From a virus (lineage: Duplodnaviria > Heunggongvirae > Uroviricota > Caudoviricetes), in the IMG/VR virus record IMGVR_UViG_2547132279_000012, positions 1 to 41,632 of that record: DNA of 41,632 nucleotides; one strand, 5' to 3'. The notes beneath the pieces were generated by a model. The model was given only the letters and a program-made list of their open reading frames with translations, was not told the DNA's origin and did no database searches. Each line of letters opens with the position of its first letter. The first letter of the stretch is position 1. The translations under genes and the position numbers were made by a program. Positions 1,369-7,894 of the stretch are shown here, one piece after another.

Positions 1369-1444
1369 GCCGATATAGCTCAGTTGGTAGAGCAGCGCAT
1401 TCGTAATGCGAAGGTCGTAGGTTCGACTCCTATTATCGGCACCA
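1369..1444 (+). tRNA. thrW: tRNA-Thr (anticodon CGU), prophage attachment target
   Basis: 76 nt cloverleaf sequence GCCGATATAGCTCAGTTGGTAGAGCAGCGCATTCGTAATGCGAAGGTCGTAGGTTCGACTCCTATTATCGGCACCA with a CGT anticodon loop and 3' CCA; an integrase gene ends 15 bp downstream. Confidence 0.9.
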
Positions 1445-5423: not shown

Positions 5424-5891
5424 TTTGCTGCTCCTCATCATATCGACCCTGCAAGGTCGGTTAGTTTCTCCACAAAACAGAGAAGAACACCTGCGGTGAC
5501 TGCCGCCCGGATGGATTGGGTTATGAGCCCGTCGTCCGGTGATGCTCTTCTCTGTTTTGTAAAAAGGACGGTACCAGCCGGAAGCAAGGGTACAAGCTGG
5601 TACCGCCAAGACTACACACAGCATAAAGTTGTGGTGCCGGGTGCCTCCCGGTGCCTGGCGAAGGTTGCACACCAGGCGGGTGGGTATCCACAGAAGGTCG
5701 ACTGTCAGCCTCAACCTTAACCCGCGTGCGCTGAGCCGCATTCACCACAACGCTAAGGATTCTCTCTGGTTGAAAATACTTAGCTGTTATGTGCCTGCTT
5801 TTAGCCACATCAGGCGAGGTGGACCTAGTTATTCCCCAACAACAAGGATTCGGTTAATCTGGTTATCCCCAACAACGCAAAAGGAAAAGAA
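5424..5891. other. GC-rich, highly structured non-coding region (candidate structured RNA or DNA element)
   Basis: No credible ORF in any frame; 15 bp perfect inverted repeat (5472-5486 / 5546-5560), 9 bp GGTACCAGC/GCTGGTACC hairpin (5570-5604), several further GC hairpins. Confidence 0.3.
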
Positions 5892-6326
5892 ATGTCCGGT
5901 AATATCTATACGCTGTACAAATCCCACTGTGAAAATGTTGGAAAGTATCGGGGCATTGAAATCAGTGGGGTAGTGTCATCAGTCGAAATAAGCAAAGTTG
6001 AATCAAGGGCAACATTACTTACTCTTTTGGACCTTGTCTTACATGAGCACCGGAAGAAATTCGGCACTCCCTATAATCAGTTGAATGGGAAAAAGGCTCT
6101 GGTTCACCTTATTCTGATGAAGCATCACTGGATGCCAAAACAGATTAATGAGATGAAATTTGATGAACTTCTTCTTTCAATTCAGGATGAACTCACACTT
6201 GATAAAATAAGCGTAACCGCCCAGAAATTTTTAGATTATCGAGACTGGAGATCACAAATTCATCACTTTGATGATTTTGACGAAAATGAATGGGATCCTA
6301 ATTTGTCTGCACAATATCTAAAGTAA
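5892..6326 (+). CDS. Hypothetical protein (144 aa), AT-rich moron transcribed against the early-left operon
   Basis: ORF with ATG start just after the direct repeats and a purine-rich leader; lower GC than flanking genes. Confidence 0.5.
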   Translation: MSGNIYTLYKSHCENVGKYRGIEISGVVSSVEISKVESRATLLTLLDLVLHEHRKKFGTPYNQLNGKKALVHLILMKHHWMPKQINEMKFDELLLSIQDELTLDKISVTAQKFLDYRDWRSQIHHFDDFDENEWDPNLSAQYLK

Positions 6327-6504
6327 CATCCTGTGATAAAACCGTGATTTCCTGATCCAGTTTTTTTAAAGAGTCTATTGTTTCCTGTCGATAAGACAGC
6401 ACTTCACGAAGCTGGTTTATAGCTGCCAGCTTCTTTGTCATCCACTCATAAATTTCCTCATCTGTGTAGCCAGGCGCGACGATTTTGGGTTCTGTTTTGT
6501 GCAT
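6298..6504 (-). CDS. Hypothetical small protein (68 aa, start MHKTEPK...)
   Basis: GAGGAG RBS 8 nt upstream of the ATG; first gene position of the leftward early operon; 3' end overlaps the 5892..6326 gene by 29 bp. Confidence 0.35.
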   Translation of the reverse strand: MHKTEPKIVAPGYTDEEIYEWMTKKLAAINQLREVLSYRQETIDSLKKLDQEITVLSQDVTLDIVQTN

Positions 6505-6563
6505 TTCACATCTCCTCAAGTTATCAGTTACTTGTTGATGGGGACCAGATTGTTAAAGAGCTA

Positions 6564-6590
6564 AGCGTCCTGTAGGGCGCTTTTTTGTTG
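6564..6590 (+). terminator. Rho-independent terminator (plus strand)
   Basis: 7 bp GC-rich stem AGCGTCC/GGGCGCT with TGTA loop followed by TTTTTTGTTG. Confidence 0.45.
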
Positions 6591-6752
6591 CTAACGAATC
6601 ATCCTGGACTTCATATGCCCCAGGCGGCTACTTCGTGGGCGTCCTGCCTGTTCGTTTTTGACATTTACTGACTGCTTACGACACATGCACCGTGTTGCAA
6701 CCAGATTTTGTTGTAATCCGGTAGTTGGTCTGGAACAAAAGATAAAATTAAA

Positions 6753-6789
6753 TTGCGAGATATGCAAGTAATATTTGCGAGGTATGCAA
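6753..6789. promoter_or_regulatory. Putative OL operators (two 15 bp TTGCGAG-N-TATGCAA sites) with leftward early promoter
   Basis: Near-identical imperfectly palindromic 15-mers TTGCGAGATATGCAA (6753-6767) and TTGCGAGGTATGCAA (6775-6789) upstream of the leftward operon; same TTGC...GCAA motif recurs in the cI-cro intergenic region. Confidence 0.45.
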
Positions 6790-6800
6790 ATTTATAGGTA

Positions 6801-6843: not shown

Positions 6844-7536
6844 TTAATTATGTCTCTTAAGGGTTTGCGACTGACTGATTAAGACCTTTCCAAAGACCAT
6901 GAATCGGTGTTCGTTTTCGCTAGTAATTCCCCATTCACGGTAAATCTGGTTATCAGAAATCACCAGCAGTTTGTCAGGAATCATTTGAAGTCTTTTAACG
7001 TATATTTTGTCATCAAAACCAAAGACATATATACCATCACCATCAAACTGATTGATGCTGACATCAACGAAGATGAGATCTCCTGGCTCAATGGTTGGAC
7101 ACATACTGTCCCCACGAACGTTGATAACTTTGATGTGATTGGCTGGTCGTCCGCCGAACATTGATACAGCATTATCAGTTCTGTATTCGATGGCATGAAT
7201 CACATCAATGACATCACCGCCCTGGATAAGGCCATTTCCCGCACTGGCACTGATATCCAGCATTTCAATACGGAACACATCCTTCACCTGCGCAACATCC
7301 TCATTATTACTGTTTTTATATACAGTATTACTTTTGTGGGCAGAGGTAAAGAGATCAGCAATATCAACACCTAAGCTCTTGGCAATATTACTCAGTGTTT
7401 GTTCGGTAAATTGTTTTTGCTTACCCGTTTCTAAGCGCGAGATGTTCGCCGCATCTACTCCTATTGCTTCAGCGAGATCGGCGATTTTCATGTTCTTCGC
7501 TTGGCGAAGTTGTCTGACTCGGTTTCCTATGTTCAT
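6844..7536 (-). CDS. CI-type prophage repressor (HTH_XRE N-terminus plus LexA-like S24 peptidase C-terminus)
   Basis: N-terminal HTH (MKIADLAEAIGVDAANISRLETGK); C-terminal autocleavage domain with conserved Ser (GDSM) and Lys (VKRL); divergent from a cro-like gene. Confidence 0.9.
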   Translation of the reverse strand: MNIGNRVRQLRQAKNMKIADLAEAIGVDAANISRLETGKQKQFTEQTLSNIAKSLGVDIADLFTSAHKSNTVYKNSNNEDVAQVKDVFRIEMLDISASAGNGLIQGGDVIDVIHAIEYRTDNAVSMFGGRPANHIKVINVRGDSMCPTIEPGDLIFVDVSINQFDGDGIYVFGFDDKIYVKRLQMIPDKLLVISDNQIYREWGITSENEHRFMVFGKVLISQSQTLKRHN

Positions 7537-7556: not shown

Positions 7557-7619
7557 TTGCGTGATAAGCAAATCAACTTGCGCAAAATAATTGCGTGAAA
7601 TAACATGCATAACGCGCAA
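7557..7619. promoter_or_regulatory. Putative OR operator cluster with divergent promoters between cI and cro
   Basis: Repeated TTGCG / CGCAA half-sites (TTGCGTGATAAGCAA at 7557-7571, TTGCGCAA, TTGCGTGA, CGCGCAA) in the 97 bp divergent intergenic region. Confidence 0.45.
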
Positions 7620-7633
7620 TATTTGGAGGTTAT

Positions 7634-7894
7634 ATGCAATCACCATTACGAAATGTGCGTAAGACGCATGGTTTCACTTTGCAGCATGTTGCTGCGGGTG
7701 TTCAAGTCAATCCAGCGACGTTGAGTCGTATTGAGAGGCTGGAGCAGATTCCATCTATCGAGCTTGCAGAACGTTTAGCCAATTTTTTTAAGGGTGAAGT
7801 CAGCGAAATGCAGATTCTTTATCCGGCACGTTTTCAATCTAGCCAAAACCAGAATGGGTTTAAACCACAGGAACAGGAGGTGAACCGTGGGTAA
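7634..7894 (+). CDS. Cro/YdaS-like HTH regulator
   Basis: 86 aa with HTH motif (FTLQHVAAGVQVNPATLSRIER); divergent from cI. Confidence 0.7.
   Translation: MQSPLRNVRKTHGFTLQHVAAGVQVNPATLSRIERLEQIPSIELAERLANFFKGEVSEMQILYPARFQSSQNQNGFKPQEQEVNRG

Follow-up and report, generated by a model that had tools for sequence, protein, structure and literature searches.

A convergent, overlapping pair of ECs1072-family and YdfC-family genes in an exchangeable prophage cassette

Phage morons, as defined for HK97 and HK022, carry their own promoter and terminator, have an odd base composition and are present in some and absent from other related phages. Convergent transcription in phage regulatory regions is known from the lambda OOP RNA, which opposes cII, and from face-to-face promoter interference in coliphage 186. 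OOP is described in the same study in which STMMW_20121, a gene of the Salmonella ST64B prophage, was found to be transcribed from its own promoter in lysogens and was proposed to be an accessory (moron) gene (Owen et al., 2020; PMC7067206). YdfC is encoded by a promoter-proximal gene of the dicBF operon (PMC5069750). Here we describe a locus that sets a relative of the first of these genes against a relative of the second. It lies in a 41,632-nucleotide stretch of a virus of the Caudoviricetes (IMG/VR record IMGVR_UViG_2547132279_000012, positions 1 to 41,632), referred to below as the window. The locus is an AT-rich accessory cassette of 770 bp (5823–6592, both strands) that holds gene A, of the ECs1072 family, gene B, of the YdfC family, their signals and a plus-strand terminator. 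On balance, we favor the reading that this is a mobile two-gene accessory cassette in which a lysogen-expressed moron, A, faces a pL-driven gene, B, with antisense damping between the convergent transcripts.

Gene A (5892–6326, plus strand; 144 aa, ATG start) points against all of the early-left genes yfdP, yfdQ, yfdR, xis and int, which lie on the minus strand to the left of the cassette. Gene B (6298–6504, minus strand; 68 aa from the ATG at 6504) is the first open reading frame (ORF) after the putative pL promoter and has a strong ribosome-binding site, GAGGAG (6512–6517, minus strand; ctcctc on the plus strand), 7 nt from its ATG. The two genes overlap tail to tail by 29 bp (6298–6326). 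This layout had been described correctly in an earlier reading made from the letters of the DNA without database searches (the sequence-only reading), which also placed a plus-strand rho-independent terminator at 6564–6590. Terminator scan and folding put it at 6563–6589, where it closes the cassette before pL and where, as the genes are laid out, a plus-strand transcript would be antisense across the whole of B. The stem-loop (6563–6582) has eight pairs, five of them G-C, and is followed by TTTTTTG. It is predicted to be one-directional because the fold is stronger on the plus strand (–12.1 vs –7.5 kcal/mol on the minus strand, a difference due to a G-U pair in the hairpin) and because the U-run is confined to the plus strand. 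The AT-richness that had been pointed out is also borne out, with a GC content of 37.9% in A, 40.1% in B and 39.7% in the cassette as a whole, compared with 50.9% in its left flank; the whole window has 49.9%.

The sequence-only reading called A an orphan, and here it was wrong. A scores 157.8 bits (E = 1.7e-46) against the NCBIfam model NF033230 (ECs1072 family phage-associated protein), for which the cut-off is 70, with residues 4–144 aligned to positions 2–142 of the 142 in the model, and it matches PHROG 5286 (E = 1.5e-90). A profile search with A gave 76 representative homologue clusters of single-domain proteins of ~145–155 aa. The statement that A has no recognisable domain is therefore right as far as Pfam is concerned and too broad in that A is a member of a curated family. 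B matches PHROG 1744 (E = 6e-35) and is 41% identical over 66 residues to YdfC of the E. coli Qin prophage, an alignment that covers the whole length from residue 1 (E = 4e-18). The two proteins share the N-terminal motif EP..(I/V)A..YT.EE.YEWM, and on this similarity B is placed in the YdfC family. Polymorphism was compared across 84 near-identical loci. Of the variable sites in A, 17 are synonymous and 5 non-synonymous (pN/pS 0.075), and not one copy is disrupted. B is likewise intact in 84 of the 84, with 7 synonymous and 9 non-synonymous sites (pN/pS 0.35). Both A and B are real genes under purifying selection. That A might be a non-coding artefact was ruled out by its family conservation and the excess of synonymous variation.

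The convergent overlapping arrangement recurs in distant phages in which A is 25–37% identical to A of the window. In the slot after a cI-type repressor and pL, two diverged forms of A, each with 37% identity, overlap a B-like gene by 95 bp (L015/L102) and 35 bp (L016). Between Q and the holin gene, the pair is found in Salmonella phage ST64B (30% identity; overlap of 71 bp with sb50), in five Klebsiella phages (25%; ~95 bp) and in a Serratia prophage (L014; 34%; 74 bp). The A homologue is unannotated in the GenBank records of ST64B (AY055382) and of several Klebsiella phages, where we located it at 2845–3279 in L103 (ST64B) and at 2845–3291 in L104 and L105; the ORF is uninterrupted, with 141 bits against the family profile. 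Both in ST64B and in the Klebsiella phages it is on the strand opposite the late operon and the convergent small gene overlaps its 3' end. The second group of B-like proteins is related to the B/YdfC group from residue 1 (hhalign probability 92.9%, E = 3.7e-7). In every pair found, A is antisense and B is sense to the surrounding lytic operon. The identity matrices of A and of B agree with each other (Pearson 0.69), which indicates that the pair diverged as a unit.

A further pair may exist in the Sakai prophage Sp4. The namesake of the family, ECs1072 (now ECs_5703), lies there antisense inside the pR operon, and what may be an unannotated 132-aa ORF (9168–9566 of L106, plus strand), located between ECs_1071 and ECs_1073, converges on it and overlaps it by ~200 bp. 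This ORF has a YdfC-like LSDVELAEWL motif and a weak score of 12.8 bits with the B profile. The occurrence of the pair in two, possibly three, operon contexts with parallel divergence suggests that A and B were transferred and retained together. Scanning viral contigs with single proteins for wider context gained us little. Because the layout is evolutionarily conserved, a functional link between A and B is likelier than the sequence-only reading could know. The convergent pairing of ECs1072-family and YdfC-family genes, with its fixed polarity, appears to be new to the literature. A literature search by accession numbers and family identifiers found nothing, and the sole functional work found on YdfC was an unrelated directed-evolution study in yeast.

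Published transcript levels are available for one of these distant pairs. STMMW_20121 (2090066–2090500, 435 bp) begins 162 bp from the holin gene and has a 71-bp overlap with the 360-bp STMMW_20131; the ST64B A homologue and sb50 show precisely this geometry in L103. Across the 17 conditions of Table S5 in that study (PMC7067206), STMMW_20121 had a median of 113 transcripts per million (TPM), with 4.9 TPM in late stationary phase and 269 TPM in InSPI2. The B-like STMMW_20131 had a median of 93 TPM, with 148 and 258 TPM in two prophage-inducing shocks, and for comparison the medians of the holin gene and of sb49 were both 3.7 TPM (Table S5, PMC7067206). STMMW_20131 tracks the holin gene in these data (Spearman 0.59). 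It too is transcribed in lysogens, probably from a promoter just upstream, because sb49 is silent. In uninduced Sakai cultures, ECs1072 dropped more than 4-fold on entry into stationary phase (PMC2241611), which agrees with the late-stationary fall of STMMW_20121. Together, these data from homologues support the idea that A-family genes are lysogeny-expressed morons.

The cassette occupies a slot with exchangeable content. Similarity of the window to SfII and SfV ends at 5822 and restarts at 6593, and in the same slot SfII has a 63-aa plus-strand gene, SfV a 98-aa minus-strand gene and mEp460 two plus-strand genes. In ~600 further E. coli genomes (as in L008 and L009) the slot holds an unrelated 171-aa plus-strand gene closed by the same terminator segment. 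The sequence-only reading had A ending at its own terminator; a terminator is indeed present, and the segment that carries it serves these unrelated genes as well. The segment (6529–6600) is found at 90–100% identity in 1,041 E. coli genomes, over double the count for B; it is also present in L017, and it acts as a common right-hand joint of the slot. None of the other occupants (the 171-aa protein, SfII_36, SfV orf33, mEp460_036 and mEp460_037) has a Pfam or PADLOC match, and no remnant of B was seen among them; L017 has a faint trace of B. Kati, SfIV and other phages have the A-B cassette beside a different cI, and SfII has the cI of the window with a different cassette. Of 5,426 complete E. 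coli genomes, 414 have A, 409 have B and 407 (~8%) have the entire cassette, and each of the 80 viral contigs that carry B carries A as well. A composition unlike the flanks and presence or absence between related phages are what the moron definition describes. A terminator of its own is predicted, and for a promoter of its own there is no consensus match; there is a conserved –10-like motif, and a promoter was shown experimentally for the ST64B homologue (PMC7067206). The module is a prophage accessory cassette in a known hotspot.

The proteins themselves are soluble. A has an isoelectric point of 6.4 and no hydrophobic or membrane segment (highest 19-residue hydropathy 0.84). The AlphaFold2 model of A built from a 47-sequence alignment is all-helical, with a predicted local distance difference test score (pLDDT) of 94.7 and a predicted template-modelling score of 0.89; the first model had a pLDDT of 78.5. 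B is acidic (isoelectric point 4.8) and has no membrane segment (highest 19-residue hydropathy 0.29). Neither A nor the 47 A-family members matched a model in Pfam or PADLOC (PADLOC-DB v2), sequence searches of the PDB with profiles A1 and A2 gave no match, and Foldseek of the A model against BFVD gave nothing below E = 1; neither PDB nor BFVD offers a convincing structural match for A. Its best structural neighbors belong to the HD-domain phosphohydrolase superfamily; this assignment was rejected for want of a significant fold match and of the H...HD...D metal-binding residues. No match for B was found in Pfam, PADLOC or by PDB sequence search. The homology searches and structure prediction proposed in the sequence-only reading, once run, placed both genes in families and gave a confident fold for A, and the function of A or B could not be read from sequence or fold with Pfam, PADLOC, NCBIfam, PDB or Foldseek. 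Neither A nor B occurs a second time in the window.

The C-terminus of B is labile. Natural variants are frameshifted at a run of seven A residues (P0047, P0052 and P0056), and in variant P0017, present on 25 contigs, the stop codon is changed to Trp. The run lies at 6366–6372, in codons 46–48, and several variants change frame or join other sequence there (P0046–P0050, P0052 and P0056). Its conserved core seems to consist of the first ~47 residues of B. We rejected L007 as evidence of a diverged B because this metagenome contig differs through indels in its homopolymer runs. A near-palindrome, TGGGATCC (6291–6298, within 6291–6300), encodes a conserved W-D-P of A and lies partly in the overlap. 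The B-like proteins of the ST64B, Klebsiella and Serratia pairs read through this site and carry W-D-P too. B of the window ends (TAG) right before it, and the change of TAG to TGG in the 25-contig variant restores ...NWDP....

Control signals for the two genes were read from the sequence. The region upstream of A (5829–5891) contains a direct repeat, TTAT(T)CCCCAACAAC (5829–5843 and 5863–5876, plus strand), the –10-like element TGGTTATCC (5860–5868, plus strand) and a ribosome-binding site, AAGGA (5882–5886, plus strand), 5 nt before the start codon. A motif of the form TGG(T/A)TATC or TATAAT (TGGTATC.T, TATAAT, TAAAAT) is found ~30–45 nt before the start in most of the diverged A homologue loci examined, and the –10-like element with its direct repeat is our candidate for the promoter of A. 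On the other side, we place pL at ~6735–6790 (minus strand, firing leftward) because a 15-mer operator occurs there twice, as TTGCGAGATATGCAA (6753–6767) and TTGCGAGGTATGCAA (6775–6789), and is found again between cI and cro (7557–7571). The promoter hexamers are weak matches and the position of pL is therefore given as putative. B has no evident promoter of its own in the consensus scan; as the first ORF after pL, it is expected to be under CI repression, and its dependence on pL is likewise presumed. A terminator-like hairpin inside B (hairpin 6408–6433, element 6408–6442, plus strand; –15.6 kcal/mol, z –4.3) could end part of the A transcripts early. It is kept in Escherichia albertii L006, and the ST64B and Klebsiella loci have a plus-strand hairpin at a comparable position. 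Between 5300 and 7700 there are eight terminator-like sites, compared with 2.2 expected from shuffles.

From these elements we propose the following working model for the cassette, which in temperate enterobacterial phages would occupy the variable slot between pL and the conserved early-left genes. A would be a classic moron, AT-rich and with its own control region, that faces the lytic operon and ends before running into pL and cI; its transcription most likely takes place in the growing lysogen. B, the first gene met by the leftward pL transcript, would be made once CI repression is lifted. Because A and B converge and overlap, antisense coverage would run both ways: A transcripts that pass the inner hairpin would end at 6589 and be antisense to the whole of B and its ribosome-binding site, and pL transcripts would be antisense to the whole of A. 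Strong firing of pL after induction would then yield B and at the same time damp A, through colliding polymerases and the formation of duplexes, and basal transcription of A would damp stray expression of B in the lysogen. Antisense coupling of this kind is plausible and, given the co-expression in ST64B, would be modulation at most. A link between A and B at the protein level is conjectural. Our best guess is that A has a lysogen-benefit function, in phage-phage competition or host modulation, and that B is its partner in the lytic phase.

Several observations weigh against this model. The consensus promoter scan found no plus-strand promoter and none for either gene inside the cassette, so that the promoter of A is a candidate only. 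The expression evidence comes from homologues and not from the cassette of the window. Lysogens of ST64B transcribe the two genes side by side, which argues against simple mutual exclusion or an on-off switch; the co-expressed ST64B pair sits behind a different promoter than the pair of the window. ECs1072 of Sakai is only a distant member of the family, at 42.8 bits against the family profile. A also occurs without B, in L005 (56% identity), in L017 (same slot and same terminator), at a non-phage chromosomal site between phoX and a DUF1275 gene (L018/19) and next to a transposase of the IS21 type (L020/21). Qin-type prophages have YdfC and lack A, and no remnant of A was found next to ydfC in a Qin-type locus. 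Since A and YdfC are each found alone, their coupling is not obligatory. Neither the overlap length (29–95 bp, or 35–95 bp in the diverged pairs) nor the C-terminus of B is conserved, and with this variability the overlap may be a by-product of tight packing.

These points make the absence of any functional coupling the best-surviving of the rival explanations, and we regard it as possible, at rather less than even chances. B would then be a backbone early gene of the YdfC family, normally followed by a DicF/STnc100-type RNA as it is in the Qin-type prophages, A would be an unrelated moron, and the overlap would be packing; the unrelated genes that share the slot and the terminator fit this explanation as well. 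It has more difficulty with a pair that is present in two, possibly three, operon contexts with both partners diverged in parallel, and with an A-B linkage of ~100% among the E. coli copies. If it is correct, the cassette is simply another moron in a known hotspot.

A stronger form of coupling than the one we favor is that A and B are a two-component prophage system, mobile as a unit between pL, pR and late operons, in which the lysogen makes a soluble helical effector, A, and the lytic transcript encodes its small acidic partner, B, the two being mutually antisense in a fixed convergent arrangement and concerned with phage conflict or with timing the switch from lysogeny to lysis. We think this improbable. 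Independently of that reading, the cassette is carried by ~8% of complete E. coli genomes, by serotype-converting phages of Shigella and by Salmonella and Klebsiella prophages. The conserved pairing joins three items that have been catalogued separately, the ECs1072 family, the K-12 y-gene ydfC and the lysogeny-expressed STMMW_20121 of ST64B, into one conserved module with an orientation fixed relative to lytic transcription. This offers a cheap experimental handle on two prophage genes and on whether convergent overlap serves to separate lysogenic and lytic expression.

A more specific proposal is that A is a lysogen effector against superinfecting phages, by exclusion or abortive infection, and that B is its own lytic-phase antidote that spares induction. 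By analogy, this could account for the expression of the A homologue from its own promoter in lysogens, for the rise of the B homologue on induction (PMC7067206) and for a polarity rule that is kept in all pairs, and the equivalent Q-holin slot of the window holds the PADLOC candidate defence pair PDC-M53. However, neither A nor its 47 relatives match a PADLOC model, A occurs alone in neighborhoods that are neither phage nor defence, and ST64B lysogens already express the B-like gene, so we hold it to be unlikely. Least credible is the toxin-antitoxin-like pairing raised by the sequence-only reading, or an antisense-controlled addiction pair, which the convergent overlapping genes, full antisense coverage and conserved pairing might suggest but which is argued against because each gene also occurs alone and the end of B varies, even to frameshifts, because both transcripts encode conserved soluble proteins, where a type I system would set a non-coding antisense RNA against a small hydrophobic peptide, because type II systems are co-directional operons of constant partners and these genes are convergent and can occur apart, and because there are no hits to toxin-antitoxin families in Pfam or PADLOC and no match in PDB.

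The favored reading, a mobile cassette with lysogenic A facing lytic B, is set in a region of familiar type. By sequence comparison, the early and immunity region of the window is that of the SfIV/SfII/SfV/CPS-53-type lambdoid prophages of E. coli and Shigella. It includes cI (6844–7536, minus strand), with helix-turn-helix and peptidase S24 domains in Pfam, a terminator for cI found by the terminator scan (6824–6807, minus strand) and cro (7634–7894, plus strand). After pL there is no arginine-rich gene of the N type; the acidic YdfC-like B comes first, behind a leader of ~225 nt (6504–6800). Leftward-downstream of the cassette, a conserved untranslated stretch (5558–5781, minus strand) resembles the structured RNA STnc100/PasD (Rfam RF02076). 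The match covers the full model length (E = 1.1e-7) at 43.4 bits, below the gathering score of 47; B lies between the putative pL and this sub-threshold match. A weak DicF match lies inside the stretch. The PasD small RNAs are relatives of STnc100 (bioRxiv 10.64898/2026.05.13.724894), and the Klebsiella phages have a full-scoring STnc100 (108 bits) at the equivalent place. The surrounding region (5440–5830, minus strand) folds strongly (z –6.0) and has a long hairpin of ~25 bp at roughly 5455–5555. RefSeq labels it a 'frameshifted hypothetical protein'; probably an RNA has here been mistaken for a pseudogene.

Elsewhere in the window, two minus-strand genes of 340 and 175 aa (13181–14738) lie antisense between the Q antiterminator gene (12756–13121; PF06530) and the holin gene (15024–15350; PF05106). 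They match the PADLOC candidate defence pair PDC-M53, with 110.5 bits for its component A and 143.1 bits for its component B, and sit in the slot that holds the A-B module in ST64B and the Klebsiella phages. A tRNA gene is found at 1369–1441 (plus strand; Rfam RF00005, 71.8 bits).

How the cassette relates to described systems can now be stated more exactly. As with OOP and cII and in coliphage 186, convergent transcripts run over the 3' end of a gene in a regulatory region, here with a 29-bp ORF overlap and a predicted A transcript that covers B, which gives scope for duplex-dependent decay and polymerase collision. The window differs in that both transcripts are protein-coding and the overlap spans whole genes, and the likeness is one of geometry. 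In the ydfABC-dicF-dicB operon of Qin (PMC5069750), YdfC is 41% identical to B and both genes are placed close to the promoter of an early-left operon under repressor control, in the window the putative pL. Between ydfC and dicF, Qin lacks an A gene; in the window the RNA match is below the Rfam threshold and dicB is absent.

Compared with the HK97/HK022-type morons, the cassette has two convergent genes, one of them on the lytic transcript, and a promoter that is only presumed; it shares their odd composition, presence or absence and predicted terminator, and A is antisense to the lytic operon and has a homologue that is expressed in lysogens. The pair STMMW_20121/STMMW_20131 of ST64B differs from that of the window in its ~30% identity, its position between Q and holin rather than after pL and its overlap of 71 bp. 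Neither the pairing nor the link to the ECs1072 and YdfC families of E. coli and Shigella was noted by the authors who described STMMW_20121 (PMC7067206). In ST64B, as in the window, a 144-aa member of the A family (141 bits) converges on and overlaps a small partner, the B-like sb50, and runs antisense to the lytic genes.

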